Assembly: GCF_003334335.1 (NCBI RefSeq)
Contig: NZ_QOWQ01000056.1
DNA: 18,875 nucleotides
Reading direction: 5' to 3' (one strand)
DNA from: Escherichia coli
GTDB taxonomy: Bacteria; Pseudomonadota; Gammaproteobacteria; Enterobacterales; Enterobacteriaceae
The notes beneath the pieces are model-generated. The model was given only the letters and a program-made list of their open reading frames with translations, was not told the DNA's origin and did no database searches. Positions 1-18,875 of this stretch are shown piece after piece. Both the position numbers and the translations under genes were made by a program. Position 1 is the first letter of the stretch, and each line of letters begins with the position of its first letter.

Positions 1-77
1 TCCATAAATTAACCTTCATTTGATGCTGGATTGAACATATCAAAATCAGGCAATTACACAAATCTATGTACAGGCTC
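1..77. repeat. Left copy of a perfect 77-bp terminal inverted repeat (partner at 18799-18875)
   Basis: Reverse complement of 18799-18875 is identical to 1-77 base for base (checked by hand); identity stops at 77/78 (c vs a). AT-rich. Outward extent beyond the window edge cannot be seen. Confidence 0.9.
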
Positions 78-423
78 CTTGCGAACATTGTTCATCAACT
101 GTGACACTGGCTCGCGGGTGACAAATACTCGCCTGGCTGAGCAGCAACAGGCATCGTATTGTTGCTCCTCCATGTTGTTCCCGCAACCAGCGTAATACCA
201 CAGGCAGTGCTGGACTGGCAGTGTGATTGCTCTCAGTAATACGTTCGTGCACCTGTCGGAAAAAGGAAGTACAGAATGCATGAATCTGTTGCCCGTTGAT
301 ATTTCCTTCTGCCGAATGGAGTGTGAAGTAAAATGCCAGCAAATGCGGCCAGTGGTCCACCGCCTGCTGAACAAAACGCCGGATGTCTCCCGGCTCTGAA
401 ATTAAGGCTTCGGTTATTTGCAC
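64..423 (-). CDS. Hypothetical ORF, possibly a gene remnant in the GC-richer left flank; no family recognised
   Basis: 119-aa ORF in the track; the first codon is GTG (plus-strand cac at 421-423) and there is no in-frame ATG near the start. Stop TAG lies inside the left inverted repeat (64-66). A second overlapping minus-strand frame (54-374) is also open, so coding status is uncertain. Confidence 0.2.
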   Translation of the reverse strand: MQITEALISEPGDIRRFVQQAVDHWPHLLAFYFTLHSAEGNINGQQIHAFCTSFFRQVHERITESNHTASPALPVVLRWLREQHGGATIRCLLLLSQASICHPRASVTVDEQCSQGACT

Positions 424-430
424 GAAATGT
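398..430. repeat. Left copy of an imperfect direct repeat bracketing the microcin island (candidate att-like boundary)
   Basis: Core cttcggttatttgcacgaaatgt (408-430) matches cttcggttatttgctcggaatgt (14083-14105) at 21/23; with 10 flanking bases about 27/33. Same orientation. It sits at the switch from GC-richer flank to the AT-rich microcin block. Confidence 0.45.
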
Positions 431-758
431 TCCTTTTCAAACCCTGTTGGATTTTGTCAAGACGGTACAGACACAGTAAAGCGCGCATCAACACCTGAAA
501 GGTACGATACAAACACAAGTTACAAACAATAAGAACGGAAGGACAATTAATCAGTGAGGAATAATAACTAAATTAACCAAAAGAATGTTACTGACAATAC
601 CACCAATACTTAAATAGCAATATATTAATTAATGTAAGAACAGATGCCCGGTAAGACATATACACAATACATCCACAAACACACTCTTTTCATTAAATAA
701 ATCACCTGATTAAACCATGAAAGTGTGATGTAAGTCAAAATTACTGACACAATCAATT

Positions 759-783
759 GATAATGATTATCTCTATCATTATC
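759..783. promoter_or_regulatory. Fur-box-like operator (iron-responsive) upstream of the 869-2125 operon
   Basis: gataatgattatctctatcattatc: the first 13 nt match the Fur consensus GATAATGATAATC with one mismatch and the last 9 nt (ATCATTATC) match the consensus 3' half exactly. It lies about 85 bp upstream of the ATG at 869. Confidence 0.45.
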
Positions 784-868
784 GTGAAATTCGAGAATGA
801 AAGGAGAAGTAGTCATTATAAGCCTTTTATAAATCGTCATCATCATAGTAAAGTAGAACACTTTTTAT

Positions 869-1339
869 ATGAGTTACTATATGAAAATATACTGGACAAG
901 AAAAAACATTCCTGAACTTTCAGCACTTCCACCTTCATTAAGAAAGAAAAATTTTACTGACGCATATAATGCTGCATCTTCCCATATCGAATACTGGATA
1001 GGTGCTGGCGTCTCATTTATCTCGATGATGATTTTATTCAAAGTATATGACTTTCTTTTACCCGCCCAAGATACTTTCCCGGGTGATATCATAAGAAGTT
1101 TATGTGTTGTGTGTCCATCCATATTAATCTGGTTTCAGTTTTCGGTATATGTCATGAGGAAATATTACAGACATATTCTGGAACGAGGTAAGGAAACCGA
1201 AACCATTTCAGAAAGGTTGATACGTGAGGCTGATACACGAGAATATGAACTATGGCGTCCGGCCCATCGCTTTTTCTCCATTATTTTTCTCATTATTCTA
1301 TTAGTTTGCATTCATTCACTGATAACAACTATAAAATAA
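869..1339 (+). CDS. Putative polytopic membrane protein (156 aa), function unknown; possible microcin immunity or accessory protein
   Basis: ATG start at 869 (second ATG at 881); hydrophobic segments (WIGAGVSFISMMILF, LCVVCPSILIWFQFSVYV, FFSIIFLIILLVCIHSLI); very AT-rich like neighbouring microcin genes; co-directional and 100 bp upstream of the CPBP gene. No obvious Shine-Dalgarno. Confidence 0.45.
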   Translation: MSYYMKIYWTRKNIPELSALPPSLRKKNFTDAYNAASSHIEYWIGAGVSFISMMILFKVYDFLLPAQDTFPGDIIRSLCVVCPSILIWFQFSVYVMRKYYRHILERGKETETISERLIREADTREYELWRPAHRFFSIIFLIILLVCIHSLITTIK

Positions 1340-1438
1340 AAGTTATGGCTGTTCTGATACAGGAAAATAAACGTTCATTCTATGGTTACCTCTTCCTGTT
1401 ATATAAAAGAATTTTAAACAACAAGTAAGGGAATATAA

Positions 1439-2125
1439 ATGGAAATAACAAAAAATAAAAATGCAACTATAAAAAAACAGTCATCAGCCGGCTGCTTTTC
1501 AATGTTTACTTTATCATTTTCCATTACCTTTATTCCTGCATTTCTTACAAACAGGCAGGAACTTATATCCAGGGGGCTTCTTGTTCCAGCATTATTTCTT
1601 GCTGAATTTCTAATTCTTGTTCCACTGTATTTTATTTTCTTCCGAAAAAGAGAAGGATTAGGAAGAGGTTCTTTTCGACTGGATGTTTTTTTTACTCTTT
1701 TCTCTTTAATAATGATTATTCAGTTATTTGTCCCTTATCTGCTGGCAGTGAGGAAAACGGAAGAATGGATGATCTCGCAAATGTCTTTTTCCGGGGCCAT
1801 TTTATGGATTAATATATTTTCTTCCGTACTTCTTGTTCCTGTATATGAAGAGATTGTATTTCGAGGGTGTCTTTTTAACTCTTTTAAATTCTGGTTTAAT
1901 GACAATATTTACATCTCTGCTATTGTAACATCAGTCATATTTTCTGCATTACATCTACAATATACTGACTTTCGTACATTTTTGATGCTCTTTCTGATAT
2001 CGTTAGTTCTTATCAGTGCAAAAATAAAGTCGAATGGCCTGTTAATGCCCATATTACTTCACATGGCGATGAATGCAGTCATAACAGGAATACAATATAC
2101 GTTACAATATCACATAACAGTCTGA
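1439..2125 (+). CDS. CPBP-family (CAAX protease / bacteriocin-processing, Abi PF02517-type) intramembrane metalloprotease, McmM/MceF-like
   Basis: 228 aa; ATG at 1439 preceded by taaggga (1426-1432). Family motifs in order: EExxxR (VYEEIVFRG), FxxxH (FSALH), HxxxN (HMAMN), within a multi-helix hydrophobic protein. Homologues (mceF, mcmM) are known in siderophore-microcin clusters. Confidence 0.8.
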   Translation: MEITKNKNATIKKQSSAGCFSMFTLSFSITFIPAFLTNRQELISRGLLVPALFLAEFLILVPLYFIFFRKREGLGRGSFRLDVFFTLFSLIMIIQLFVPYLLAVRKTEEWMISQMSFSGAILWINIFSSVLLVPVYEEIVFRGCLFNSFKFWFNDNIYISAIVTSVIFSALHLQYTDFRTFLMLFLISLVLISAKIKSNGLLMPILLHMAMNAVITGIQYTLQYHITV

Positions 2126-2377
2126 AATTGTTATTATGAGATATCTATAACACCTGAAGTTGGAAAAAGAAGCAAATAATTCCTTATAAGGAATCGTTTA
2201 CTAATATATTTAGATAATCTCATATTTGTTTATGATATACATCTGATTAAGATATAATGGATTATAAATTACTCAAAGGTGAACAAATATCTTCGCCTTT
2301 TCTCGTAGAAAGAGACTTGAAACTTATAATACATCTATATAAACGTGATTTAAATCACGGTTTGCAGTAAAAGCAAT

Positions 2378-2386
2378 TGGTATAAT
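2378..2386 (+). promoter_or_regulatory. Candidate extended -10 promoter element (TGgTATAAT) for the immunity-like/microcin-like pair
   Basis: tggtataat at 2378-2386 fits the TGnTATAAT extended -10 pattern; the nearest -35-like hexamer (ttgcag, 2362-2367) has a short 13-nt spacer. Sequence-only prediction. Confidence 0.25.
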
Positions 2387-2570
2387 TCATTGGTATTACT
2401 ATTATTTCATCTATTGCACGAACTATTTTACAACAATAAAAAAGATATACAAACAGCAAGAAGTAAAAATATTCGGATAAATAAAAATTTTTGCTACCTT
2501 GGTTTCTATAGTCTTTATTTCTAAGTTTTTCATAAGCACTCAAAGACTCATGTATAGGGACGGTTTAATA

Positions 2571-2735
2571 ATGAAACTATTTTTTTATTTCTCGTTGTTC
2601 TTTATAATACAACTTATAAATTCAGACTTAGACACATTAACCCTTTATCTTTTCATAAAGAAAATAATTCTTTCGTTACTTGCGAGTGTACTGTTTTTAT
2701 TTGTTTTATCTTTCTTTAATAAAAAGAGGAAATAA
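2571..2735 (+). CDS. Candidate microcin immunity protein (small two-helix hydrophobic peptide, about 54 aa)
   Basis: The track ORF 2499-2735 starts at TTG; in-frame ATGs occur at 2550 and 2571, and the 2571 one has aggga 11 nt upstream. Product MKLFFYFSLFFIIQLI...IILSLLASVLFLFVLSFF NKKRK has two hydrophobic helices and a basic tail. Stop TAA (2733-2735) is 1 nt before the microcin-like ATG, and the precursor's RBS lies inside its last codons. Confidence 0.4.
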   Translation: MKLFFYFSLFFIIQLINSDLDTLTLYLFIKKIILSLLASVLFLFVLSFFNKKRK

Positions 2736-2736
2736 C

Positions 2737-3060
2737 ATGAGAAATATAACAACCGATGAACTTGCTTTAATACATGGTGCAGGATTAGATAAAGATGCAT
2801 CCGTTGCAATAGGTACTGCGGCTGGTGGTTTTTTAGGTAAAGCAACAAAAATCCCTGGTGCGGATATAGCAGGAAGTGCAATTGGAGGATATATTGGAGG
2901 AGTTATTGCTGATGGTTCAAATAGGACAATAACAATACCATCAAACGGTATTAACTATAATCCGGGTATAGGACTTGGAAGTTTTAATCCAAACTACAAT
3001 GGAGGTTTATTAAACTCAGGATTTAACTCATCAACATCCTCTTCTAGTAGTGGAAGTTGA
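2737..3060 (+). CDS. Class IIb (siderophore-type) microcin-like precursor, 107 aa: 15-aa double-glycine-type leader plus 92-aa Gly/Ser-rich core
   Basis: ATG at 2737 with strong SD aagagga (2724-2730). Leader MRNITTDELALIHGA|G parallels MchB MREITESQLRYISGA|G and the MRxI(S/T)xxEL pattern. Core is cysteine-free, 20/92 Gly, and ends NSSTSSSSSGS like the Ser-rich tails of H47 and E492 that receive the salmochelin-type moiety. The track's 126-aa version starts at TTG (2680) with no RBS and overlaps the upstream ORF. Confidence 0.7.
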   Translation: MRNITTDELALIHGAGLDKDASVAIGTAAGGFLGKATKIPGADIAGSAIGGYIGGVIADGSNRTITIPSNGINYNPGIGLGSFNPNYNGGLLNSGFNSSTSSSSSGS

Positions 3061-3069
3061 TTAATTTCT

Positions 3070-3105
3070 AAAGCAGCATAGCTTATTATGCAGCAATGCT
3101 GCTTT
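3070..3105. terminator. Candidate bidirectional rho-independent terminator between the convergent microcin-like gene and mchF
   Basis: aaagcagcat (3070-3079) pairs with atgctgcttt (3096-3105); an alternative tighter hairpin gcagc-aat-gctgc is followed by tttt. Located between the stop at 3060 (+) and the stop at 3121 (-). Confidence 0.45.
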
Positions 3106-3120
3106 TAGTGATATATTATC

Positions 3121-5223
3121 CTAATTTGTAATTCTAAAAATCCGATCAACTGTTCTTAAAGTTGTCTCTCTATGTGCAATAATCACCCGGGTGATATTCA
3201 TCTTTTTTATAGCAGCATTCACGAAACGTTCACTTTCTGTATCAAGAGAACTTGTAGCCTCATCCATAAATAATATTCCAGGTTTCCGGTATAAAGCTCG
3301 GGCAATGAATATACGCTGTTTTTGACCGCCGGAAAGACCTTCCCCCAGTTCACCTATTAACGTTTCATACCCCATTGGCATTTTCATTATCACATCATGA
3401 ATATGACTTGCTCTGGCACATTCTGTCATCCATTCGTCGTCTGTTTCTTCTGCAAACCCACAGATATTTTCACGAATTGATCCTGAAAATAGCCGGTCGT
3501 CCTGCATAACACAGGCTATCATACGGTGATAATTATTTATTCCAAGTTGACGTATATCCGTGCCATTAACCAGTACTTTTCCACTATCTGGTTCAAACAG
3601 TCCACATAATACTTTCATTAATGTGGTTTTTCCGGCACCGGAGGCACCAGTTATAGCCACACTTTCTCCCGGAGCCACAGACAAATTCAGACCACTGAAT
3701 ACCTGTGCTGACTGGCTGTCATACCGGTAGCTTAAATCAGTGGTTTCCAGTGAAACCGGGCTCATGTCAGCAACGATTTCAATTTCCGGTTTCTTTTCTT
3801 CCTTTTCATGTAGTGCAATATCTGCAATGCGCTCATTATGCAGACTCATTATTCTCAGTTGAAGAAGAAAACTGGTCAGCGAAGCAACCCGATCCGAAAA
3901 CTGCCCACGAAAAGAACCAAATGCCACAAACATCCCTATTGTCATCTGATTATCGATCACAAGGCTTGCACCCAGCCATAAAATCGCCACCTGATCACAG
4001 GCGGCAACAAAAGTATTTATCCCCCCGAAGAGCAAATCCATCCTGGTTAACTTAATACCTGAATTGATCGCATCTATTTTCAGGTTAAGCCAGTGTGTTC
4101 CCCGAATCCCAGCCATACCCTGGATTTTTACCGTGGCAATACCATACAGGCTTTCCATAAAATAGGAGCTGGCCCGGGCCCCCCTGACAAGAGTTTCTTC
4201 CGATATTTGCCGGTAATAGCCGTATGTCACCAGACGAATAAGAACGTAAACCATGGTAAAACCGAGCACTATCCAGGTAAGATATCCTCCATATAACAGC
4301 ATCATCACAAAAACACCCACAACCATAATACTGTCCATGATTGCCCCAACAACACAGGTGGTAAAGGTGGCCCTCAAAGTGTCAAGGGAGCCAAAACGCG
4401 ACTGGATATCACCTAATTTACGGCGTTCAAAAAACGCCAGCGGCAGTCTGAGAAGATGGTTAAACAGACCCGACTGCCACTGTATATTGATGAGCGTGCT
4501 CATAACCAGTGAGGACCATGCACGCAGCATACTCACCGCGGCCCTGAGCAATATAAAGAACATCAGGCCAGCAGAAATAAGCGTCAGCAGCCCTCTGTCC
4601 CCCGCCGGAATCGCATGATCCATAACCAGCTGAGTTCCCACCGGCATTACCAGATTGATTGCTTCAATTACAACTGACAGACAGAAAATTTTCGCCAGTG
4701 TTCTTTTAATACCGTAAATACTGTTAATCAGTGAACGGAGACTTATGCGGGTCTGCTGGGTTTCCGCCAGGAATTCACTTCCGGGCCAGACCTCAAGTGC
4801 AATGCCCGTAAAATACCGGCTCATTTCCTCCCGACCGAGATATCTTCTGCCTCTGGCCGGATCATGCAGTACATAACGGTTACGCTTTACGCTGACCAGC
4901 ACGACGAAGTGACTGAAATCCCAGTGGAGAATACACGGCATTTTGAGGGCACCAAGTTCATCCAGCTCCAGTGAAAGAGCCCGGGTGACCATCCCCAGCT
5001 GCTCCGCTATTCCATTGATTCCTGCAAGGTTTGCTCCACGGGCCGAGAGATTAAACTTCCGGCGAAGAGATATCAGGTCAATATTCTTACCAAAATGACC
5101 GCATATCATTGCCAGGCAGGCCAGTCCACATTCAGCGGTCTCCGTCTGATGAATAACCGGAACACGACGTCGCCAGCGCATATCAAGCTGATTTATAATT
5201 TGTCTGAAATTCCCGTTAGTCAT
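3121..5223 (-). CDS. mchF: Microcin export ABC transporter with N-terminal C39 peptidase domain (CvaB/MchF family)
   Basis: About 700 aa. C39 catalytic Cys context [14 protein letters not shown]; Walker [10 protein letters not shown]; ABC signature LSGGQKQR; Walker [10 protein letters not shown]. The track ORF (to 5241) begins at GTG; the ATG at 5223 ([10 protein letters not shown]) has AGGA 9 nt upstream and overlaps the mchE stop by 8 nt, as in cvaA/cvaB. Confidence 0.93.
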
Positions 5224-6457
5224 TGAGCGGTCCTGTTGCACTGTGTTTCATGTCATAGAAAGGAGAAAGCATCCACTGGTAAATACGCCTTTTTTCCAGA
5301 AATAGTGTACTTTCGGCTTTCATTCCATTTTCCAGAGGGAGGTATTTTTCGTCATATCTGATAATCTGCTTTTCAGGCATCGCAATGACTTTATACCAGG
5401 GAACAGAGTCGCCCGGCGTATTCTGTGGTGCTCCCTTATAGGTCAACATTTCCTGTGTTGACGCAGGAGTCCTGGATATAGTTTTAACCGTAGCAGAGAA
5501 CTGCCCAAATTTTTCTGCCGGAAAGGCTTCATAACGAATATTCACTTTGTCACCAGCCGAAATATAAGGAACAGCATCATTCGGGACCCAGAGAATAAGA
5601 TAATAGTTTTCAATGTTCTCAGGAATAACCTGCAGAAGGCTGTCTCCGGTATTGACCATTTGCCCGACAGTGACACTCAGGGAGTCAACTTTCCCGTCAG
5701 TCAACGCCCGGATAATGATTTCGCCCTCCACATCAGTGTTAACCAGTTCTTTCTGTAACTCATACCGTTGCAGTTCCATCTGGTAGATACGGTTATCAAA
5801 ATCTGCAGCCTGAGTCTGAATCTGACTCTCCAGAGTGGTTATCTGCAGGGCATTCTGTTCGTTCTGTCCGCTCAGGCTGAGAAGATTGTTTTGTTGCTGA
5901 TAATATAATGCCACCTGGTTAGTTAACTGATCTTTATTAATCAGCCCTTTTGCCTGATAGTTTCTGTAATTCTCCATATTGTTTTTCATTATTTTTATCC
6001 CTTCCTCTGCACGCTGTATAATATCTGATGAGCGACGAAACGCATCTGTGTATTGCAGGCGTTGTTTTTCCAGGGTATCTAGCGTTATTTTTTTACTTTC
6101 TTCCAGACGGGAAATAATGTTGTCCACACGAACCAACTGGTTTTCTATATCCCGACGATGATTATCAGTGACAATACCACTACGTGTACTTTTACTGATG
6201 TCAATCAGATAAACAGGATCCCCTTTTTTTATCAACTGTCCTTCATGAACAAACTGCCTGACAACAAATCCCTGTACACCTGAATATATATTGACAGCTC
6301 TTGGCCAGGTTGTGACCTCACCACTGACATTAACACGGCGGCTATAGGTACCAACAATAATGAACATCAGAAATGCCGTAATAAACACTATGCTTCCCAG
6401 CATGATTAACCATAGTGGTATTCCGGGAAGTAATATTGCCCGTCCCTGCCACTTCAT
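5216..6457 (-). CDS. mchE: HlyD-family membrane fusion / secretion protein (CvaA/MchE family)
   Basis: N-terminal TM segment ([28 protein letters not shown]) followed by a long coiled-coil region and C-terminal beta domain typical of HlyD-type partners. The track ORF starts at TTG (6490); the first ATG is at 6457 ([12 protein letters not shown]), giving 413 aa. Confidence 0.92.
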
Positions 6458-6642
6458 TTTTCTGTTTTCTAAAGCATCCTGACGAAACAAAATAGCTCCT
6501 CTTACTCACACTTTTCCTGTAATATCTTCACTGGTTAACCGAAATGCTATAATCAAAGCCAGAAAATACAGAGTCCTGTCAAAATAGTATCAGCGATGCA
6601 TTTACCCCGTAATTTACAATTATCTCTGTATCTTCAGAGGTA

Positions 6643-7095
6643 CTACGTTTTATGCAGCCGCTCAGGGATGTATGTCACAATTTTCTTTCGCCTGCTTAAC
6701 CATCGTACTTCTCCTTCTCCCCATGGCTGAAGCTGTATGAGATAGTCAATAACTTTTCGACCAAAGCCTGGTTTACAACAGAAATCCAGAATCCAAATCC
6801 TTCCATCTTCATTCCATTCAGACGGATGCAACCTGAATTCTGGATCCCTGAGCAGGCGCGCTTCTGTATCAGCCTCAAGATATGCCCAGGTAATATACGC
6901 CAGTGGAAAACCTCGTGAATCAAACAGGAATTTAATCTGATTATGCTGTATCGCATATTCAGTCCAGTATTGAATGGTTAACACCGGATACAGACTGTAA
7001 TTACGATTGTAGAGCATACAACTGACCGCAAAACCGATCTGTTCATAAACAGTCCATTCATCTTTTCCTCTGATGGTTTCCCTTATATAAGACAT
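6643..7095 (-). CDS. mchD: MchD/MceI-like microcin maturation protein (HlyC-like acyltransferase family), 150 aa
   Basis: ATG start at 7095; 150 aa; located between mchC and mchE in the conserved mchBCDEF order. In the E492 system the MceI/MceJ pair links glycosylated enterobactin to the C-terminal Ser of the precursor. Confidence 0.8.
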   Translation of the reverse strand: MSYIRETIRGKDEWTVYEQIGFAVSCMLYNRNYSLYPVLTIQYWTEYAIQHNQIKFLFDSRGFPLAYITWAYLEADTEARLLRDPEFRLHPSEWNEDGRIWILDFCCKPGFGRKVIDYLIQLQPWGEGEVRWLSRRKKIVTYIPERLHKT

Positions 7096-7120
7096 GATTA
7101 CTATTTCCCTTATATATTTT

Positions 7121-8671
7121 TTACACTGTGTTTCTTATCGGTTCAAGATATCCAAATGCATCTCTGGAAAACTTAAGCATAAAATTTTTCATATCAGAAA
7201 TTGCTTCTTGTAAAAAAAGGGGATCATCGCCATGATTATCCAGCAGGATGGCAATTTTTTCGCACATATTCTCTTTCCTCAGCTCTTCCCTGGGTTGCAG
7301 CCTTTTCATGGTATGATGTTCAATTTCTTTCAGGAGTAATGAGGCATTTATCTGACGTCTGGTACTGCCTTGCGTCAGCCAGTGGATGGCCTGGGAAAAA
7401 CACTGTTGTGCAACGGTGAAATAAACATCATTCTTGATGCTACTATTCAGTGCCTGCTTTTGATTATGCCTATGATGGATTAGCGTCACAACCAACTTTT
7501 GCAATGGTGAACCATCCTGATTGACAATATCTTGGGCATGTGATTTCTCGCAGTATTGATTGAGTAATGCAACAAAACTGTTAACCAGTTCTTTCAATAT
7601 ATCAGGTATCTCTTTTTGTGTTATAAATTCTCCAGGAATACCCAACAGTTCTAGATAACAGTAATAACATGCTTCATGAAAAGTTTTCTGAAATATCTCC
7701 TCAACCTTCAAACGGGCTGCAAGAGTGAAGTCAGGGTCAAACATATATTTTCCGATATACAAGCAGAGATCAGACAGCCCTTGCATAAGTACCATCGGTT
7801 CTTTTGCCAGTTCAGCTAATCTTAGTTTATACCCAAAATCAGCTGGGGAATCTCCCGGAAACAGACAACTGAGTCCGCTAAAATCCATTAATCTGCCATC
7901 CATTGCAATATTAGAAGGAGAAGTTGTCAATCTCAGGAAACGTGTTCGACAAAATGCCATTTGCCAGGCCTCACGACGTGCCAGTTCACATAACCCCTCA
8001 ATGCAATAAATCCGGGGATCAGTTCGTGCTTCAGCATCAATTTCTTCCGGTGGTACAGGTAGATATCCTGGCAGCTTGTGGATCACAGATCTAACCCGAC
8101 AGGCATCGTGAATTAACAGACTGGAATACTCCGGTTTTACTTGGAAGTAAGGTGCCCGTTCAAAATGCGCCGGACGAACAACAGGCTCACGTACCAACAG
8201 GGCTCTTCGTGATTTCCTACCGGAGCGCTCAAATGCCTTTTCAGTATAGAGATCTGTAAGTAAAACCGCCCGAACCCGCACAGCACTATAAGGTAATATT
8301 TGAGCCAGTACTTCTCCCCACAAAGCCTCATATATTGCATGAACAGCGCCGAGTGCACCATTAGAATGACGTTCGTCAGTACCTTCGCCAACCAACGGAT
8401 TACTTCCTATTCCTTTAACCTGGTAGTTACCATCAAACCCACAACGTGCACCACCTCCATTACGCTGAATACCACTGCCACCATAGCGCTCTGCATGGAA
8501 CACTTTGGCAGAAGCTGTACTGCCAGGATCGATAATATAACTGCAGGCATTTTGCAGCTCGTCTGGATTTCTGACATCCTCTGCACACCAGATTAATGAG
8601 GCCTTGATCTGCCTGGCAGTGAAAGGCACCAGGTTTTCATTCAGTTCAGAAAGTGAACACTGATGACTCAT
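7121..8671 (-). CDS. mchC: MchC/MceJ-like microcin maturation protein, 516 aa
   Basis: ATG start at 8671 (MSHQCSLSELNENLV...), GGAG about 12 nt upstream; 516 aa; immediately downstream of mchB on the same strand and upstream of mchD. Confidence 0.85.
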   Translation of the reverse strand: MSHQCSLSELNENLVPFTARQIKASLIWCAEDVRNPDELQNACSYIIDPGSTASAKVFHAERYGGSGIQRNGGGARCGFDGNYQVKGIGSNPLVGEGTDERHSNGALGAVHAIYEALWGEVLAQILPYSAVRVRAVLLTDLYTEKAFERSGRKSRRALLVREPVVRPAHFERAPYFQVKPEYSSLLIHDACRVRSVIHKLPGYLPVPPEEIDAEARTDPRIYCIEGLCELARREAWQMAFCRTRFLRLTTSPSNIAMDGRLMDFSGLSCLFPGDSPADFGYKLRLAELAKEPMVLMQGLSDLCLYIGKYMFDPDFTLAARLKVEEIFQKTFHEACYYCYLELLGIPGEFITQKEIPDILKELVNSFVALLNQYCEKSHAQDIVNQDGSPLQKLVVTLIHHRHNQKQALNSSIKNDVYFTVAQQCFSQAIHWLTQGSTRRQINASLLLKEIEHHTMKRLQPREELRKENMCEKIAILLDNHGDDPLFLQEAISDMKNFMLKFSRDAFGYLEPIRNTV

Positions 8672-8695
8672 CTGGCAGTATTCTCCGTTTCAATT

Positions 8696-8721
8696 TTCAT
8701 AAAAGAGTGTTCATAAAAGAG
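8696..8721. repeat. Tandem 12-bp direct repeat (ttcataaaagag x2, 2-nt spacer) in the mchC upstream region
   Basis: ttcataaaagag at 8696-8707 and again at 8710-8721, 25-50 bp upstream of the mchC start codon (8671, minus strand). Candidate operator or UTR element. Confidence 0.3.
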
Positions 8722-8942
8722 CAAGTAAGTGTCCTGACAGCTTCTTCCTTATTACAGTAAAACTCTATTAATTACACATAAATTAAAAAATTATTTATCA
8801 ACGACTGTAAATCATATCTTCATCAGTAAAGTGTTGAACATAAAAACACACTTATAAATGGATCTTCTATCTGTTTTAAACAAAAAGGATATATTTTACA
8901 GGTACTACCGAAAAAGTGCCTGTAAAATAAATAAAAATATAA

Positions 8943-10064: not shown

Positions 10065-10084
10065 CAAACATTTTTGCAAACTGA

Positions 10085-10098
10085 TACCTGATCAGGTA
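10085..10098. repeat. Perfect 14-bp palindrome tacctgatcaggta just downstream of mchS4
   Basis: tacctgatcaggta is its own reverse complement; lies 21 bp after the mchS4 stop and about 120 bp upstream of mchS3. No loop, so it looks more like a protein-binding site than a terminator. Confidence 0.3.
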
Positions 10099-10219
10099 CA
10101 AGCCTGTTGATTATTATGCTGAATATTTCATGTTATAAAACCATCGATATAAACATTAACAAGAAAAAACATATATTGTTTATCTGAACATTTATCGATG
10201 GAAAACCAAAGGGGAAAGT

Positions 10220-10654
10220 ATGTATCTTACGAAAAAGATTATAATAAGTATGATGTTTATATTACCATCTGCTGCATTTTCATCAGATCCACCTCCCCTT
10301 CAACAATCGTTAGAAAAAACAACCTATTTTTCTATAGGTATGAATGGGTTTATAGGCTATCAGAGCGAAGGGGAAAAATTATACACACACATTCTTACAT
10401 TAGATAATCCCGAAGAGATATTTAAAAATATAATAGAAAATAGAAAGTCAACTAAGGAGTCTAAAATTTATGCTGCTTGTGGGCTATATTATTTAAACGT
10501 AGAAAATATAGAGTCATTGTTTAATGAAAATGATAAACAAGAATATATGTCTGTCTTAAGAGGGGATATTTTAACAAAAATAAAACTGAATGATATTCTG
10601 AATTCTGTGATAATAAATGGTTGCAACACCAAATTAATATCTGAACATAAATGA
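10220..10654 (+). CDS. mchS3: Putative immunity protein for the downstream microcin (144 aa, N-terminal signal/anchor), MchS3-like
   Basis: ATG at 10220 with SD aaagggga upstream; N-terminal hydrophobic segment KKIIISMMFILPSAAFSS; ends 16 bp before the microcin precursor gene, the classic immunity-then-toxin arrangement. Confidence 0.65.
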   Translation: MYLTKKIIISMMFILPSAAFSSDPPPLQQSLEKTTYFSIGMNGFIGYQSEGEKLYTHILTLDNPEEIFKNIIENRKSTKESKIYAACGLYYLNVENIESLFNENDKQEYMSVLRGDILTKIKLNDILNSVIINGCNTKLISEHK

Positions 10655-10670
10655 GCAGGAGGTTTTTAAA

Positions 10671-10907
10671 ATGAGAGAAATATCAGATCACATGCTTGAT
10701 TTCGTGAAAGGAGGGATGAATCTTAATGGATTACCTAGTTCTACTAATGTAATAGATCTACGAGGAAAAGATATGGGAACATATATTGATGCTAATGGAA
10801 CATGCTGGGCTCCGGGTACTCCATCCATCATCATGTATCCGGGGGGAAGTGGACCTTCTTATAGTATGAGTAGTTCCACATCCAGCGTAAACAGCGGCAC
10901 ATCATAA
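10671..10907 (+). CDS. mchS2: Second siderophore-microcin-type precursor (78 aa; leader MREISDHMLDFVKGG, Ser-rich tail), microcin I47-like
   Basis: ATG at 10671 with SD aggagg (10657-10662). 15-aa leader ending GG, 63-aa core with one Cys, C-terminal SMSSSTSSVNSGTS. Position next to mchS3 and mchS1 matches the H47 island. Confidence 0.8.
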   Translation: MREISDHMLDFVKGGMNLNGLPSSTNVIDLRGKDMGTYIDANGTCWAPGTPSIIMYPGGSGPSYSMSSSTSSVNSGTS

Positions 10908-10940
10908 ATACCCTCCGGCATGGCCGGAGGGTATTTATGA
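10902..10940 (+). terminator. Rho-independent terminator-like hairpin at the end of mchS2
   Basis: 18-nt arms tcataaataccctccggc / gccggagggtatttatga around a 3-nt loop (atg), with a GC-rich core ccctccggc/gccggaggg; overlaps the mchS2 stop codon. Confidence 0.5.
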
Positions 10941-11191
10941 TGTGCCTGTAAGACTCTACTTCTGTCGTCTCTTAACAAAGGCATATGATCTGTCATTTTG
11001 TACCAGACATCTTAACGAGAGCCTTTTCATATATTACTTACACACGTGAAATCTACAGTATAAAGCAAAAATTTTATTAAACCTGTTTTATATTTATCAT
11101 CAATACAACAGATTTAATTCCGGAAAGTCACTCATCATCCCTTGAATGAACGTCATTTGATGTATTATTCTTACACTTGGATTAATTTAAG

Positions 11192-12466
11192 ATGATACCT
11201 ATGAAAAACTATCTTTTCCAGACTCCCGAAGATATTTGTGTACAGTTAAAAAAAATGACACATCCTGTCACAATAAGAACAACAGATATTGCTAATTTCT
11301 GGCACTATCTTGAGTCAGCAACACTTCCAGTGATCACAAAAAGCACCACTACAGAAAATCGGGAGGTTACATTTCTGTGGCGCTCAGAGAAAGCACTGCA
11401 AGGCGTATATCTTCGCCTGAATCGTGTTACAGATAAAAAAGACGTCAAAAAAGGACTAATGACTCATATCCCTTCGACAGATATCTGGATGCTGACACTG
11501 GTGTTACCAGCTTCATATCGGGGCTCATACTCATTTATAGAAATTCCCACAGATATGACACAAAAAGACATATTTCAACTAGGAAGTCGCTTCTCTCCAT
11601 TACCCGGTAAATCTGATCCATTTAACAAAACAGCAGAAATAAATATACGAGGATTCGGAGAATCAGTCCTTTCTCTTGATATGGCTCCTGAACAAAAGGA
11701 ATGGGATGATACTTCCCATAAATGTACAGGTATTCTTTCAACATTACATTCCTTTGTTGCAGGATATCAACGCCGGATTCGTTTATATTTCCCCCTGAAT
11801 CCAACATCAGTACCTCTTGGATTACTTGTGTTACCTGATGCTGAAACATGGTTTGACCGGATAGATATTACCCGGGCATTAGATATGGCCATCACCACTG
11901 GTCGTATCACGCCAATGGCAATTATGGGGATAGACAATATTAATGAATCTGATCGTATGAATATACTGGGAGGCAATAAAGAACTCATCTTTGATATAGC
12001 GGAAAATCTGATACCCCAGTTATACAGAGACTATCCGGATATCGTATGGGCTGGTCGCTCTAATACTGTACTGGCCGGGCAGAGCCTCGGTGGAGTGACA
12101 GCACTGATGGCAGCTATATATGCGTCGACAACATTTGGTACAATCATTAGTCACTCACCTTCAATGTGGTGGAACCCTGACCAGGGCAGCCCGATCTTGT
12201 TTACTGAGAATAATACCTCCTGGGTAAGTGAGCAGATACTTTCAGCGCCTCCGAAAGATGTAAATATCCGACTTGGAGTCGGTTCTTTAGAAGGTACAAC
12301 CGTCTCACATGTTCAGCGATTGCATCATTCGTTAATCGCAGCTGGTTTGGAAAGTAACCTCACTGTCTATACCGGTGGTCACGATTATGCTTGGTGGCGC
12401 GGAGCAATTATTGATGAATTAGCAAATTATAATTGCAGGAAGGTATCAAATAATAACTCTGTGTAA
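11192..12466 (+). CDS. mchS1: IroD-like enterobactin/salmochelin esterase (alpha/beta hydrolase), 424 aa
   Basis: Serine-hydrolase nucleophile motif GQSLGG (AGQSLGGVTALMAA); size close to IroD/Fes-type esterases; convergent with and adjacent to the IroB-like glycosyltransferase. Alternative ATG at 11201. Confidence 0.8.
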   Translation: MIPMKNYLFQTPEDICVQLKKMTHPVTIRTTDIANFWHYLESATLPVITKSTTTENREVTFLWRSEKALQGVYLRLNRVTDKKDVKKGLMTHIPSTDIWMLTLVLPASYRGSYSFIEIPTDMTQKDIFQLGSRFSPLPGKSDPFNKTAEINIRGFGESVLSLDMAPEQKEWDDTSHKCTGILSTLHSFVAGYQRRIRLYFPLNPTSVPLGLLVLPDAETWFDRIDITRALDMAITTGRITPMAIMGIDNINESDRMNILGGNKELIFDIAENLIPQLYRDYPDIVWAGRSNTVLAGQSLGGVTALMAAIYASTTFGTIISHSPSMWWNPDQGSPILFTENNTSWVSEQILSAPPKDVNIRLGVGSLEGTTVSHVQRLHHSLIAAGLESNLTVYTGGHDYAWWRGAIIDELANYNCRKVSNNNSV

Positions 12467-12535
12467 AATATCGTTTTATCGTCCGATAACTCTTTCTGCA
12501 ATATTATTATGGGAGACTGTCTCATTTATTTAGTG

Positions 12536-12564
12536 ATGTCCTTCATTTATGTGATGAAGGACAT
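12536..12564. terminator. Candidate bidirectional terminator hairpin between convergent mchS1 and mchA
   Basis: atgtccttcat (12536-12546) and atgaaggacat (12554-12564) form an 11-bp stem with a 7-nt loop, flanked by T/A-rich runs on both sides. Confidence 0.45.
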
Positions 12565-12607
12565 TATATTACTCATAACATTTCTCGTTGAAAATTTCAG
12601 CAATACG

Positions 12608-13732
12608 CTACAATTGTTTCCCGTTGTTTTTTAATTTTCTCATCAAAACCTCTGCGATCTCTGCAGGAGTGGGTTGTTCAGCCATTTCAGCGGCTACCTG
12701 ATCTGAACAGAAGCGTAGTGAATCATCATAAAGCAGGCGATTTACCAAATCACTGGTCAGTCCATGCTTGTCCGGAATAATCCCACACCCACGCTTCGCA
12801 ACAATTTCTGCATTAACAGAGCGATCTGCACCTTCTCCAAACACAATCTGTGGTATTCCACTATACAGCGCTGTCAGGGTATTACCTGCGCCACCGTGAT
12901 GAATAAATCCATCAGCTCCATTAAGGAATACACCCATAGGTATCCAGTCAACCAGACGTACATTTGATGGTAGTTTTCGTAATCCAGTACGAGCATTTAT
13001 TGCAAGTTGCAAAATGATATCAGCATCAACTTCATTTGCTGAATCCATAACCCATGAAATCAGCTCCAGACCATCAACCATTGGTTTTACAGTGCCAAGG
13101 CTGATGAGTAAACGTTTCCGATCAGAATCCCTGTCCCACCATGTTTCCTTTACAGCACCTCCGTTATAAGGAATATATCGCATTGAGATAATCGGTTCTT
13201 CAGCATTTTTAAGAATGCTCATACTTGGGGGAGCAACATCAATCCATGCTAAATCACATAGTGGACCGCTGACTCCATGCCGCCTGTAAGCATTGCTTAA
13301 AGAACGGTTTAACATCTGAATATGGGCAGATGTATGCGCGAATCCAACAGCCAGCATCACTGAAGGAATTCTATATTTAGCAGCAACCAATGGGCCTGCC
13401 GGACCAAGCGGGGGATAGACTATTAAATCTGGCCTCCATTTTCCTGCAAAATCGATGAGGTTATCTGCCATTTCATCGCTAAAAAAAGAGAAATGACCAA
13501 TAATATTACTTTTTTTCCTCAACTCTTCCTGATGGCGATATCCAGCCTCTGAATCTAAACTTGGAGCTGCATCAAAAACAACCAGTCCAGCTTCTGCTGC
13601 TTTATTCGCGAATTTGCCAGCGCTACTAATTACTACATCATGTCCGATTACACGAAAGGCCTGAGCCAGAGAAATCAATGGGTATAACAAACCGTACAGC
13701 GGAGGGCCAATAAAAAGAATACGTTTTCGCAT
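12608..13732 (-). CDS. mchA: IroB-like C-glycosyltransferase (GT1/MGT family) for enterobactin glucosylation, 374 aa
   Basis: ATG at 13732 (MRKRILFIGPPLYGLLYPLISLA, the IroB-like N-terminus); UDP-sugar-binding signature region FIHHGGAGNTLTAL; length close to IroB. Confidence 0.88.
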   Translation of the reverse strand: MRKRILFIGPPLYGLLYPLISLAQAFRVIGHDVVISSAGKFANKAAEAGLVVFDAAPSLDSEAGYRHQEELRKKSNIIGHFSFFSDEMADNLIDFAGKWRPDLIVYPPLGPAGPLVAAKYRIPSVMLAVGFAHTSAHIQMLNRSLSNAYRRHGVSGPLCDLAWIDVAPPSMSILKNAEEPIISMRYIPYNGGAVKETWWDRDSDRKRLLISLGTVKPMVDGLELISWVMDSANEVDADIILQLAINARTGLRKLPSNVRLVDWIPMGVFLNGADGFIHHGGAGNTLTALYSGIPQIVFGEGADRSVNAEIVAKRGCGIIPDKHGLTSDLVNRLLYDDSLRFCSDQVAAEMAEQPTPAEIAEVLMRKLKNNGKQL

Positions 13733-14072
13733 TAAAAAAGTCCGTCTTCTGCTTACCTGTTTATTTTTCTATCGCTAAGAAAACATAATTAATATTATTT
13801 TTATGTGAGCTTATGCACAAAAATAACAAAGTATCTTATCTTCTGGTAGAGATACAGGATACAGTTTGTAGGAGCTTTCTTTTTTTGAACAATGATTTGC
13901 AGGACAGTTATGCCAACCTAGCAGAATCAGTATCACAACAATAAATGACAGATCATACCTGAAATTTGAATTAACAGGCATCATGAATGTCAATAGTCTA
14001 AGCGGTTACTACTTACATCGCTTGCATAAATACTAAACACTGACTAGAAAAGTATTGGATAACCCCGTCACT

Positions 14073-14105
14073 AAAAGTAACACTTCGGTTATTTGCTCGG
14101 AATGT
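14073..14105. repeat. Right copy of the imperfect direct repeat bracketing the microcin island
   Basis: See the 398-430 entry; the core at 14083-14105 is 21/23 identical to 408-430. It lies in the 675-bp non-coding gap between mchA and the alpA-like gene. Confidence 0.45.
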
Positions 14106-14407
14106 ATCAACGCCAAGATTGTTAGCCGTTACGCCTTATATCACTGGCGCTGACAAATGTTTCTTTTCTAATTTACTGAACCGGCGCAGACTTACAGAAA
14201 AACACTCCGGCACCGGTGTAATGCCAGTTATAATCAATAAGAATAGAATGACGAATCAGTCAGGAATAGCTATAACCTGCAGGCTGACTGGAGAATGTCT
14301 GTAAGAAGATGAACGTAAATGTCGCCAGTACCAGGGGCAGGGCCGGGTTCCACAATACCAGCGCCGGCATTTTGCACATTGCCAGCGTACCGGCATCACA
14401 ACACGTT

Positions 14408-14644
14408 TCATGCAGCTGCTCCTCGTGATTCCTCAATTCGCTGCTGCATCCACTGCTCCACTTCACTTTTGTACCAGCGGCTGCTGCGACCCAGTTTTAT
14501 GGGTTTAGGAAAATGACCTTCACTGATCAGCTTGTAAAACCATTTATCGGTCATACCGGTGAAACTGGTGATGTAGTTCATGTCGATCAGGGGATCGTCG
14601 GCACGCAGCAATACACTGTCGTGGCCTGTTATTGAGGTCAACAT
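14408..14644 (-). CDS. alpA: AlpA-family phage/island transcriptional regulator (excisionase-like DNA-binding protein)
   Basis: MTDKWFYKLISEGHFPKPIKLGRSSRWYKSEVEQWMQQR fits the AlpA-type helix-turn-helix pattern. ATG at 14644 with GAGGA upstream; alternative internal ATG at 14581 would give 57 aa. Confidence 0.75.
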   Translation of the reverse strand: MLTSITGHDSVLLRADDPLIDMNYITSFTGMTDKWFYKLISEGHFPKPIKLGRSSRWYKSEVEQWMQQRIEESRGAAA

Positions 14645-14712
14645 AGTCAGGATGTCCTCTGTGAGATTTATGGAGGTTGGGCAAATGCTGGTGAATCTGC
14701 TGAACTGAGCTT

Positions 14713-15288
14713 TCAGAACAGTCCTGCAGATCCGGGATAGCCGGGATTACCGGCGAGGCAACGGGCTTCCGGATCGCACACACCACGACGATCGCGGGCG
14801 AAATCACTGAACGCCCAGATCAAGTCTTTGAGGATGTCTTCGCAGTCCGGTGAACGACTGTCCAGCACCACATCCCGGGTGATCTGCTTCTGGTACGGTG
14901 CTGCTTCACCCGGTGATGCGAAGCCCAGTACGTTGCTCCAGGCATCCAGAATCAGCCGATCCAGTTCAGGGCCGTCGAAATACTCTTGTCTGACGCATAA
15001 CACCACGTGGTATTCCGGCTTTTCCGGATGACGGGTCAGGAGCCAGCAAAGGTCGCGTCCGGGTTTCGCATTCATCAGCGCACTGACGGTTTCGATAAAA
15101 TCCATACCAAACCAGGTCTGTCTGCTGTTGAAGGCGTTGTCATGTTCCCACGGCAGACGAAGCAGGATCCGCCGTATCCGTGAGCCGGACTGCTCACGCA
15201 GCGCACGCTCAAGGACGCCGATGACTTTGTTCTGATAAGATGGCCAGAAGGGTGCCAGGCTATAGTCGAAATAAGGAATAGCATTCAT
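14713..15288 (-). CDS. Inovirus Gp2-family (YagK/YfjJ-like) protein, about 191 aa
   Basis: The track ORF starts at TTG (15318); first ATG at 15288 (MNAIPYFDYSLAPFW...). Contains a YHVVLCV segment and shares overall pattern with the upstream paralog. This family is typical of P4-like islands next to alpA. Confidence 0.6.
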   Translation of the reverse strand: MNAIPYFDYSLAPFWPSYQNKVIGVLERALREQSGSRIRRILLRLPWEHDNAFNSRQTWFGMDFIETVSALMNAKPGRDLCWLLTRHPEKPEYHVVLCVRQEYFDGPELDRLILDAWSNVLGFASPGEAAPYQKQITRDVVLDSRSPDCEDILKDLIWAFSDFARDRRGVCDPEARCLAGNPGYPGSAGLF

Positions 15289-15535
15289 AAGATATGTTCC
15301 GTTATGCGCAGCCCACAATGCGTCCTGCCCGTGAATGAGCTGACGTGTTATGGCTTGCGGAATGAGATTGATGGAATAAGTGAAGAACCGAAGCAGAACG
15401 GGAAGACAAGGAACAAAACACCGGATGCAGGTTCAGGATGAATGATCTCCGTTGACTTCAGTTCACATCATTAATCAAGGCGGTAAGTTTTTACCGACGG
15501 AGTGTTTCCAGGAGCGAAGGCTCAGGCCTTAAGCT

Positions 15536-16102
15536 TCAGAAGTGAGGCTTACGAGGACGCCCTGCAGCAGGACGTTCAGGAACTTCATTGCAGCCGTAGG
15601 CACACAACCCGTCTTTTTGCTCTTCTTTCGCCAGATAATGCAGAGCACCGCGAATATTATCGATGCTTTCAGGCTCGTTATGACGCACAGGAATGTTGAT
15701 GTTGTATGTATAATGCGGCTGATATGTACAGCAGTGTGCCGAACCGCTGTTATGCGTAATAGACCGCCAGCATTCCGTAATCCGCTCCGCAAAGGGATAT
15801 ATTTTTTTAACCCTCTGACGATCGATCCAGAAAACCACATGCGCATGAAAACCATGATCAACCGTCCATTCAATCACCCAGAAGAAGCCAACCATATTTT
15901 CAAATTGTTCAACCTGCTCCAGCAGCATACGCAACTGCAATTCAAGCCAGCGATGATCAGGTTGTAAGAAATCGGGCGTATCTTTCCTGTAGAAGAAATC
16001 CATCCGTAAGGCCCGCAGGCAGGAATAGCGTGCCATCATTTGATTGATGTGATTGTCAAGTAAAGCGGTAAAAAACCAGTTTGGTGTGTAAGATTTAGGC
16101 AT
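15536..16102 (-). CDS. Inovirus Gp2-family (YagK/YfjJ-like) protein with HUH-like motif (FHAHVVFW), 188 aa
   Basis: ATG at 16102 with AGGAG 8-12 nt upstream. HAHVVF resembles the HUH motif of rolling-circle initiators from which this family derives. Tandem with the 14713-15288 paralog. Confidence 0.65.
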   Translation of the reverse strand: MPKSYTPNWFFTALLDNHINQMMARYSCLRALRMDFFYRKDTPDFLQPDHRWLELQLRMLLEQVEQFENMVGFFWVIEWTVDHGFHAHVVFWIDRQRVKKIYPFAERITECWRSITHNSGSAHCCTYQPHYTYNINIPVRHNEPESIDNIRGALHYLAKEEQKDGLCAYGCNEVPERPAAGRPRKPHF

Positions 16103-17585
16103 GTTGATGACTCCTGAAAGTTAATGATGTTTTAAGCTCTGTGAACGAATTAATGCTTTCGCTCATAATCAGATCTAAAACGGTAATAACTTACAGACGG
16201 TATTTATCAGGCATGCTGTAGCAGAATGGATACGACGGGTTATTAACGATACGCAGCATTATGCAGAAAGAAATGGATTATCTGATGGTATTAGCTAAAG
16301 AGATGAGATAAACGAGGAGTAAAGAAAATACAGACTCAATAAAACATCACGAAATACTGCAAAATACGCGATAAAACACCACGACCAGAAGGTTAAGAAA
16401 CATATTGCGACCAATCACATCATAAACTACAAACTTGCTCTCAGTGGTTGTAAAAACCGAGTACAAGGCCAATGCAATAAACTTATATGTGCTCATTCAA
16501 TCTGTTCTTAAGGACATGAACATTCACGGCTCACGATAGCAGAATAAAAAATACCACTGACATGATTTTCATCCTGCATCTTAGATAATACAACCCAGAA
16601 CAAACATAATCAGGAATCTCTCCTGTCAATTCCATTGTTTATCCAGCTCTGTTAATCGTTACAGAATCATGGATACCTTATCAAAAAGTAAACATTCGGT
16701 TAATCAGTGATGACAGAGGAATTGATGTTCATCAGAATAGTTAAAACACTTCAGGTCAACAACAATCATCGTTAAGCAAATACGATTCATGATGGATAAG
16801 ATTAAAATCAATTGCTGTTGCAGTGAAGACTGATAACAGATGGATATCAGCAACAGCGTAGTAGAGAATAACTTATCTGAATATTATATGAGTTACAGTA
16901 GTTATGATTGAATGAAAGGGAAGTTGATATTGTGATAATGGCGACAAAAAAGATTAGAGAAGGACATGAGTGAGTAAAGACAGAGTGAATAAAGATAGAG
17001 ATTATTTAAAAAGGGAGTGAGTATAGTTGAATGAGAGTAAGAGTAATGGAATGTGTAAAAACAGAGAGTGAATATAATTATAGTAATAAACCTAAATTAA
17101 AGTCATCCATGTTTGATGAGTAAAAATAATGTCAGAAAATGAATTTGTTTGAAAATTTTTCTCAGAGATAACCGTTCTGATGCTCAACGAACTCAATAAA
17201 TTGGCTAAGTCAGGTTACCTCATCCACACTCTATTTATTTTTATAAGAACCAATCATTTTGATCACCTACCGAGACACATCAATTTAGTGATGCGATAGT
17301 ATTGTATTGGTTATATAGATATTTATCGTTGTTGCCAATGCCCGGATTATTGGCCTCCAGGTATTCTCTTTACTTACAAACTAATTTTGAAACAGAGGTC
17401 GCTCCATTTTAGGAGTAGAATCTATGTAAAAGTCTGCTATGAGTGAGGAGCGAAAGTTTGATTGTCCCTCTAGGCTAGCTAATGAAAAAACTGAATTTTG
17501 AGCATTATTGCACGATAATCTTAGAGGTTGGTTACAGAATGTTGTGATATGATCCTCGATCACTTTAACTCATTGAATTTAAATT

Positions 17586-18800
17586 ATGGACAGTGGATTC
17601 GTAGATCTCGATATACTTCTTACACGAATTAGGCATGCCCAGTCGAAAACATACTTTCTTGATGCCGTTAAGGCCTACAAAGCGGGCGCGTTGAGGGGGG
17701 CACTAACTTCCGCTTGGGTTGCTCTCGTCTACGATCTGATAGCCAAATATCGTGAGCTTAGTGCCATGGGCGATGCAGCAGCGACTGCATTTCTTAATAC
17801 TTGGGACAACGCGACTAAATCAGGTGACATCCCTAAACTTCTCCAACTTGAGGGGGGCATTCTTGAAGACGCAACGGCCAATGCTCAGGTAGTCAACCGG
17901 TTAGCCCGAACTCACTTAGACCGTCTTCGCGAGGATAGGCATCTTTGCGCGCATCCAGCATTCTCAGCAGAAGCAGATCTATTCGAACCTTCTCATGAGT
18001 TAGTGCGACTTCATTTAGTAAATGCTGTGGAATTCGTCCTATCGCAAGAACCTTTACAGGGAAAAGCAATATTCGAGTTATATGACGTTGATGTTCAATC
18101 GCCCGGTTTTCCTACGGACAGTAAACGCATTCTTGATTATGTAGAACAACGTTATCTTACTCGCGTACGCGCTCAGAATATCAGTAACTTCGGCACGATT
18201 CTCGCCAAATCACTTCTCAAAGGTGTGCCAGAACAATGGGAAACGCTTTATCACCAGATTATTACATCATTAGTCGCCGTACGAGACCGCGCCAGCATTG
18301 CTTGGCCAAACGTTTCACTGTCAATTGTTAGGCTTATTGATAATCTAGAACCACGACATCGGCCTAGAGCGATCGCATTTATTGCCGCATTTAATGAGTT
18401 TTGGATGCAGCTTCAGGAGCCAACGCGAACAGTCTTGCTAGAGACTATTGAAAATGCCAATCCAGAAAATATCACTGATTACCGTATTTTGACTGGTGTA
18501 ACTTTCGTACCGTTTCAAGCCTCGCTGCAAAGGCTAATAACGGGACTAACTCAACAGCAGTTGGCCTCAGCGATCATCTTTAACCCACTTGCTGAACTTT
18601 GGGATAAGGCAATAGAATACTATGCAGAATCAGGTAGCTGGCGTGGATCTGAGGGGAACTTTATTTCTCTCGTCATACCGTTTTCTGGCCGCCTTAGTCA
18701 GCAACAGTTCGACCAACTTCTAGATGCTATCATTTCCAATACGCAGAATTGGGATGCCGCTGAGACGCCTAAGCTTCTCCTAGGAATGCTCCGCAATTGA
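17586..18800 (+). CDS. Hypothetical protein, 404 aa, no family recognised; N-terminal region has a HEPN-like R-x5-H motif (RLREDRH)
   Basis: Long clean ORF with ATG at 17586 and stop TGA at 18798-18800 abutting the right inverted repeat; balanced, non-repetitive composition typical of a globular protein. No convincing Shine-Dalgarno. The HEPN suggestion rests on one short motif. Confidence 0.55.
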   Translation: MDSGFVDLDILLTRIRHAQSKTYFLDAVKAYKAGALRGALTSAWVALVYDLIAKYRELSAMGDAAATAFLNTWDNATKSGDIPKLLQLEGGILEDATANAQVVNRLARTHLDRLREDRHLCAHPAFSAEADLFEPSHELVRLHLVNAVEFVLSQEPLQGKAIFELYDVDVQSPGFPTDSKRILDYVEQRYLTRVRAQNISNFGTILAKSLLKGVPEQWETLYHQIITSLVAVRDRASIAWPNVSLSIVRLIDNLEPRHRPRAIAFIAAFNEFWMQLQEPTRTVLLETIENANPENITDYRILTGVTFVPFQASLQRLITGLTQQQLASAIIFNPLAELWDKAIEYYAESGSWRGSEGNFISLVIPFSGRLSQQQFDQLLDAIISNTQNWDAAETPKLLLGMLRN

Positions 18801-18875
18801 GCCTGTACATAGATTTGTGTAATTGCCTGATTTTGATATGTTCAATCCAGCATCAAATGAAGGTTAATTTATGGA
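18799..18875. repeat. Right copy of the perfect 77-bp terminal inverted repeat (partner at 1-77)
   Basis: Exact reverse complement of 1-77; its inner boundary overlaps the last 2 nt of the stop codon of the 404-aa ORF. Confidence 0.9.

Follow-up and report, generated by a model that had tools for sequence, protein, structure and literature searches.

We have analyzed an 18,875-nucleotide stretch of DNA from Escherichia coli (hereafter, the window), both ends of which are formed by one inverted repeat, and consider it very probable that the window is a whole short-read contig in which the insertion sequence (IS) IS1414 flanks a stretch of a chromosomal island in two inverted copies, each end of the contig being cut one k-mer into the IS. 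Indeed, the window is the complete record QOWQ01000056.1 (18,875 bp) of the E. coli draft assembly GCA_003334335.1. The record was found by an exact-protein look-up with a 404-amino-acid (aa) product of the window, and its fetched portion agrees exactly with window positions 7586-18875. The cargo between the two IS ends is the known small genomic island of microcin H47, which is equipped here with microcin H47, a variant of microcin I47, and microcin Ec W. An IS-bounded contig of this kind is ordinary.

IS1414 termini at both ends

An earlier reading of the letters of the window without database searches (the sequence-only reading) had claimed an exact 77-bp inverted repeat at both ends with abrupt inner boundaries, and both claims held. 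By a repeat search and direct reading, the two arms (positions 1-77 and 18799-18875) were found to be 77 nt each, complementary to 100%, and spaced by 18,721 nt. The 77-mer has exactly two copies in the window with up to three mismatches permitted, and none of 200 dinucleotide-preserving shuffles reproduced the match; the inverted repeat was confirmed to be real and far above chance. In the inward direction, the left arm is followed by CTTGCGAA and the right arm by AATTGCGG (CCGCAATT in reverse complement); these two mismatch from the first base, and the match hence ends at 77/78 and 18798/18799. The only part common to these inner 8-mers is a TTGCG pentamer at different offsets, which we treated as chance. 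The outer ends of the repeat, on the other side, coincide with the contig ends, the window being the whole QOWQ01000056.1 record.

As the reference for IS1414, we used the intact copy in strain 13KWH46 (L002 2504-3818; 1,315 bp). Window positions 18799-18875, and also the reverse complement of positions 1-77, are identical to positions 1-77 of this IS (77/77; L002 2504-2580). The coding sequence of the transposase in the reference is 1,209 nt long with its ATG at IS position 73; the 77-mer is therefore the IS1414 end upstream of the transposase, namely the left inverted repeat (IRL), the transposase leader, and the first five nucleotides (ATGGA) of the transposase gene. The reference ends are imperfect inverted repeats (GAGCCTGTACATAGATTTGTGTAATTGCC vs GAGCCTGTTTAGGATTCTGTGTAAATGCC, with ~21 of the 29 outermost positions in agreement), and its final 77 nt end in ...CATTTACACAGAATCCTAAACAGGCTC. 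When 5,426 complete genomes of E. coli were searched by BLAST, furthermore, the right end of the window (18796/18799-18875) fell on the RefSeq feature “IS256-like element IS1414 family transposase”.

The left IS1414 end (1-77, minus strand) corresponds to IS positions 1-77 in reverse complement, and the right one (18799-18875, plus strand) has positions 1-77 in the opposite orientation to the left copy; the transposase would read leftward in the former and rightward in the latter, i.e., outward in both. Judging from these matches, the 18,721-bp segment is flanked by two inverted copies of IS1414, an IS of the IS256 family, with their IRL ends facing inward, and the inner boundaries are the true IS termini (IS position 1). 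The main proposal of the sequence-only reading, namely that a longer repeated element such as an IS is present in inverted orientation on either side of the segment, is supported together with the outward continuation of the repeat, in that the 77-mer is the start of the 1,315-bp IS1414. Also, the reference copy is flanked by an 8-bp direct target duplication (GAAGGATT). By analogy with this duplication, the presumed target sites are CTTGCGAA at 78-85 for the left copy and CCGCAATT at 18791-18798 for the right copy, and their duplicates should be present beyond each IS, outside the contig.

Full-length IS1414 was found in 474 of the 5,426 complete genomes, at up to 23 places per genome, and its amplification up to 11 copies has been published (PMC12585946). 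In terms of resemblance to the described IS1414 (McVeigh et al. 2000; PMC12585946), the present ends share the 77/77 identity of the terminus, the boundary at IS position 1, and the multicopy occurrence in E. coli, whereas this contig extends no further than 77 nt into either copy, and the transposase, astA, the right inverted repeat (IRR), and the target duplications lie outside. The open reading frame (ORF) astA/EAST1 is known to be carried within IS1414 (PMC12585946); in the reference copy (L002 2504-3818), the prototype EAST1 enterotoxin of 38 aa (MPSTQYIRRPASSYASCIWCATACASCHGRTTKPSLAT) is encoded inside the transposase gene in another frame.

Both inner boundaries cut a gene. On the left, a truncated gene of the UCP030791 family (YagK/YfjJ neighbourhood; 64-423, minus strand) is composed of 115 native codons, four IS codons (GACT), and a stop codon in the IS; the sequence-only reading had correctly placed this stop within the left copy. 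The intact gene encodes 170 aa in strain N10 (L001 7834-8346) as well as in many other genomes, and is assigned to UCP030791/PF27752 in other records. In an alignment, the intact and window products diverge precisely at the IS boundary, the cut being after codon 115. In N10, the remainder of the gene is found left of the junction point at L001 8008; past the intact gene there is an ECs1377-family gene, the protein of which is widespread (368 indexed blocks), and then a two-partner secretion locus.

On the right, a truncated PD-T7-3-like gene, which is a candidate for an anti-phage gene (17586-18800, plus strand), retains 404 native codons. Its TGA stop (18798-18800) is composed of one native base (18798) and the first two bases of the IS, and the overlap of this stop with the right copy had also been described from the letters. 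The intact gene in strain ZYB39 encodes 450 aa (L003 6187-7539) with 99.9% identity up to window position 18798, and past the presumed target site CCGCAATT it continues from L003 7392 as CTTTACCCGCCAACC.... The 404-aa product matched the PADLOC profile of PD-T7-3 over positions 5-399 of its 432 with an E value of 1.7e-36, while no match was found for it in Pfam or NCBIfam. We also noticed that this gene is hit by different IS in different strains: IS1414 after codon 404 here, and an IS3-family element elsewhere, the latter being located at window position 17826/17827 in N10 (L001 25749-27005) and 23CRST038. The distal part of the PD-T7-3-like gene is absent from the fetched locus of N10.

Relatives with neither IS copy were found among the complete genomes, where all of the matches to the window start at base 78. 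N10 and 23CRST038 are 100% identical to the window over 78-17826 (17.7 kb) with both IS copies absent, and the match in N10 is an internal chromosomal region that continues on both sides. ZYB39 and CFIAFB20190157, furthermore, match window positions 17400-18798 at 99.9%. Searches of the 5,426 complete genomes of E. coli and of 72,556 plasmid records of PLSDB returned neither of the two IS junctions, and the exact truncated 404-aa protein was found on only five short contigs, its neighbours being the same wherever these are readable. By exact-protein look-up, no record was returned for the truncated left ORF of 119 aa or for two ORFs predicted for the left-gene remnant under the assumption of an 8-bp duplication; the predicted remnant of the right gene contains no callable in-frame ORF. 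Because the closest complete relatives lack both copies, the two insertions are lineage-specific, and they are probably recent.

The simplest and most likely history is two independent insertions in situ. Each IS1414 would have arrived by a separate copy-out/paste-in insertion of the IS256 type into a gene of a pre-existing island, and these insertions would have truncated the UCP030791-family gene on the left and the PD-T7-3-like gene on the right. The transposition of IS256 is indeed of a copy-paste type via circular intermediates (PMC10266640). We infer that both copies of IS1414 are full length; each would be equipped with its own 8-bp duplication, and the outer flanks would continue the interrupted genes.

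Contig ends and the 77-nt length

The outer boundary of the repeat is a stop of the assembler, the contig having presumably ended one k-mer inside the IS, and is not of biological origin. The IS bases at both contig ends are equal in number (77), as predicted for a cut set by the k-mer. In assemblies based on de Bruijn graphs, 77 is a common k and also the largest default k of SPAdes with reads of ~150 nt; k was presumably 77 in GCA_003334335.1 as well. A multicopy IS of 1.3 kb would not be bridged by short reads, and a de Bruijn contig would then end one k-mer (77 nt) into the IS on both sides, giving a perfect terminal inverted repeat of 77 bp; contigs that adjoin such a repeat are left with one k-mer in common. 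Overlapping contig ends have been ascribed to the SPAdes process in the Unicycler paper (PMC5481147). The present contig is similar to such k-mer overlaps in that the repeat occupies precisely the two ends of the contig, its 77 nt equal a standard k, and the break occurs at a multicopy IS. A second assembler likewise breaks within the same IS; namely, an independent Logan assembly from another run (SRR30938087) agrees completely with window positions 10541-18825 and halts 27 nt into the IS.

Some points nonetheless weigh against the reading of the window as an island stretch between two IS1414 copies cut by the assembler. Only 77 nt of each copy is visible, so that either copy could be a fragment. 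The outer flanks lie beyond the contig, and independent insertion in situ is hence parsimonious rather than demonstrated. As a difference from the published k-mer overlaps, furthermore, a SPAdes-type assembler with k = 77 is presumed for GCA_003334335.1. As for the possibility raised in the sequence-only reading that the repeat is an artefact of windowing or of contig ends, this describes well the outer end and the figure of 77 bp, both of which were set by the assembly, but not the IS terminus, which is real, nor the right junction, which recurs in an independent run.

A caution follows for similar sequences: a perfect terminal inverted repeat with a length equal to an assembler k at both ends of a contig marks a contig bounded by inverted copies of a multicopy IS, and is no terminal repeat in the biological sense. 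Screens taking terminal inverted repeats as proof of a complete linear element would misclassify the present contig.

Inversion, composite transposition, and other explanations

The sequence-only reading had described the segment as possibly invertible or composite-transposon-like. The architecture fits this description, but no sign of activity was seen, and the junctions are absent from the complete genomes and plasmids searched. In the case of inversion, RecA-dependent exchange between the inverted 1.3-kb IS copies would flip the 18.7-kb segment, and the two orientations would be found side by side or would vary among isolates. Inverted repeats of ~1.3 kb are generally known to be adequate for homologous recombination; also, both contig ends meet the same IS end, and the orientation of the segment can hence not be fixed by short reads. 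Nonetheless, the annotation of the window includes no gene for a site-specific invertase or integrase, and an inversion would have no obvious regulatory effect, the boundaries splitting no promoter-gene pair. Among the annotated or NCBIfam-scanned ORFs of the window, no recombinase was found, and the sole DNA-binding gene is of the AlpA type with a helix-turn-helix (HTH) motif. Invertible segments of the Hin/Gin or Fim type have short inverted repeats next to a gene for an invertase or recombinase; the repeat is here an IS end. We regard a recombinationally invertible segment as plausible in principle but unlikely.

Alternatively, the 18.7-kb cargo might constitute, together with both copies of IS1414, a working composite transposon of ~21.35 kb, similar to Tn4001, that moves the microcin island as a unit. 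Two copies of one IS with inverted IRL termini are indeed found around the cargo, albeit with 77 nt seen per copy, and the 77-mer is 100% identical to that of the intact prototype IS1414. The IS256 copies of Tn4001 and Tn5281 are also inverted. These two transposons are precedents in the IS256 family (PMC10266640), and the present cargo resembles theirs in having an IS256-family element on each side in inverted orientation; in contrast, it is far larger (18.7 kb), its ends are interrupted genes of an island, and neither a second context nor evidence for movement was obtained. In the complete genomes, the plasmid records, and the five short contigs with the truncated protein, namely, no more than one genomic context was seen. 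Furthermore, the genes interrupted at the inner boundaries are found uninterrupted and in collinear order in related islands, as insertion in situ predicts. The outer ends of a composite transposon would be two IRR, and its outer target duplication would lie outside the contig. A working transposon is hence quite improbable. We likewise give little credence to a mobile Tn4001-like unit of ~21.35 kb that carries a siderophore-microcin island with three microcins (and two copies of astA/EAST1 if the IS copies are prototype); if true, however, such a composite unit could spread microcin production between replicons independently of recombination at the attachment (att) sites of the island.

Another explanation is that the repeat is purely an assembly error, such as a chimeric or hairpin-like contig end, with no genuine IS at either end. 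The length typical of an assembler k and the placement exactly at both contig ends would be as expected from such an error. The 77-mer is, however, a real IS terminus with the boundary at IS position 1 on both sides, and the right junction recurs in a separate run and a separate assembler. Also, a second NCBI assembly has the same 404-aa product on a contig that is again 18,875 bp long (P0057). A pure error is accordingly very hard to reconcile with these observations and is highly improbable.

Finally, the repeats might be genuine termini of a linear replicon or phage, contigs with terminal inverted repeats being a formal target of genome-completeness screens, or a structured element at two loci. 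Hardly any credence can be given to this: the content is that of a chromosomal island and is collinear with complete chromosomes of E. coli (78-17826 being identical to the interior of the N10 chromosome), no genes for replication, terminal proteins, or virions are annotated, and the 77-mer folds no better than its shuffles. In particular, the proposal in the sequence-only reading that two loci make use of one structured element was rejected: the fold of the 77-mer has an energy of -11.7 kcal/mol, while its shuffles average -12.7 (z +0.38), and neither an Rfam family at the gathering threshold nor a tRNA gene was found in the entire window.

The microcin H47 island and its backbone

The genes of the cargo were called from N10, in which the corresponding region is 100% identical and annotated in RefSeq, together with matches to NCBIfam. 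The microcin island itself (382-14252) starts with genes for a membrane protein of 152 aa (881-1339) and a CPBP protease (1439-2125), followed by the gene for the Ec W immunity protein, Ec WI (2571-2735; an ORF of 54 codons), which ends one base upstream of the gene for the class IIb microcin Ec W (2737-3060; 107 aa; RefSeq WP_001390454.1). On the minus strand are then mchF (3121-5241), mchE (5216-6490), mchD (6643-7095), mchC (7121-8671), mchB (8943-9170), and mchI (9198-9407). These are followed by mchS4 (9819-10064), mchS3 (10220-10654; matched to MchS3 of NCBIfam), the gene for an I47-like microcin (10671-10907), an enterochelin-esterase-like gene (11192-12466; matched in NCBIfam), and a glycosyltransferase gene on the minus strand (12608-13732).

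As characteristic of the H47 island, mchA-F together with mchI/B and mchS are located between extended imperfect direct repeats. In the window, these repeats (~382-545 and 14057-14252) are ~13.7 kb apart and bracket the microcin genes, with a 42-nt core of 81% identity. They correspond to the attL/attR-type repeats described for the mobile H47 island, which are 148 and 144 bp long with 76% identity (Azpiroz et al. 2011, PMC3191183). The cargo is thus similar to the published island (PMC3191183; with Ec W replacing microcin M, PMC12999681) in its gene content, gene order, and imperfect attL/attR-like repeats, but differs in that the island and ~4.5 kb of adjoining backbone are additionally bracketed by IS1414. 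We also noticed that ZYB39 (L003) has the same backbone genes minus the microcin block, resembling an empty site.

Ec W (2737-3060), being of the siderophore class of microcins, occupies the usual position of microcin M; its leader of 15 aa ends in GA, and its C-terminus is rich in Ser. The same protein, WP_001390454.1, is also annotated in NCTC10444 (3367929-3368252), and it is this locus that was described in 2025 as the pair of microcin Ec W and immunity gene Ec WI (PMC12999681). While 29 genomes were found by blastn in that study (PMC12999681), the exact protein WP_001390454.1 is present on at least 1,000 contigs; it is still a “hypothetical protein” in most sources.

The precursor of the I47-like microcin (10671-10907) is composed of 78 aa and ends in ...SSVNSGTS. 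The published I47 presumably ends in ...SSANSGS, and the form in the window looks like a C-terminal variant at the region of siderophore attachment. At 10896-10946, overlapping the stop codon of this gene, there is a perfect palindrome of 24 bp around a loop of 3 nt (GGCACATCATAAATACCCTCCGGC atg GCCGGAGGGTATTTATGATGTGCC), probably a terminator-type hairpin.

Beyond the microcin block is the backbone of the larger island (14408-17585), which is equipped with an AlpA-type HTH gene (14408-14644), a hypothetical gene of 191 aa (14713-15288), and a YagK/YfjJ (inovirus Gp2-type) gene (15536-16102), all on the minus strand. Between the last of these and the PD-T7-3-like gene, there is an AT-rich stretch of 1.5 kb without long ORFs (16103-17585), in which the GC content is 34-36% and the sole ORF of at least 60 aa is one of 60 aa at 17381-17563; across 16050-17650, no match to Rfam was found at E ≤ 0.1. 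The GC content is a mosaic in the window, with ~30-34% around the genes for Ec W, the CPBP protease, and the 152-aa protein (500-3000) vs 49-52% in the region of the AlpA-type and 191-aa genes (14000-15500). This suggests that the modules of the island are of different origin.

In conclusion, the window is very probably a stretch of the microcin H47 island and its backbone between two inverted copies of IS1414. This arrangement might in principle permit inversion or transposition en bloc. One of the two lineage-specific IS1414 insertions truncates a PD-T7-3-like candidate defence gene next to the island of microcins H47, I47, and Ec W. If both of the flanking IS1414 copies are prototype, furthermore, this strain of E. 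coli would have at least two astA genes beside the microcin island.

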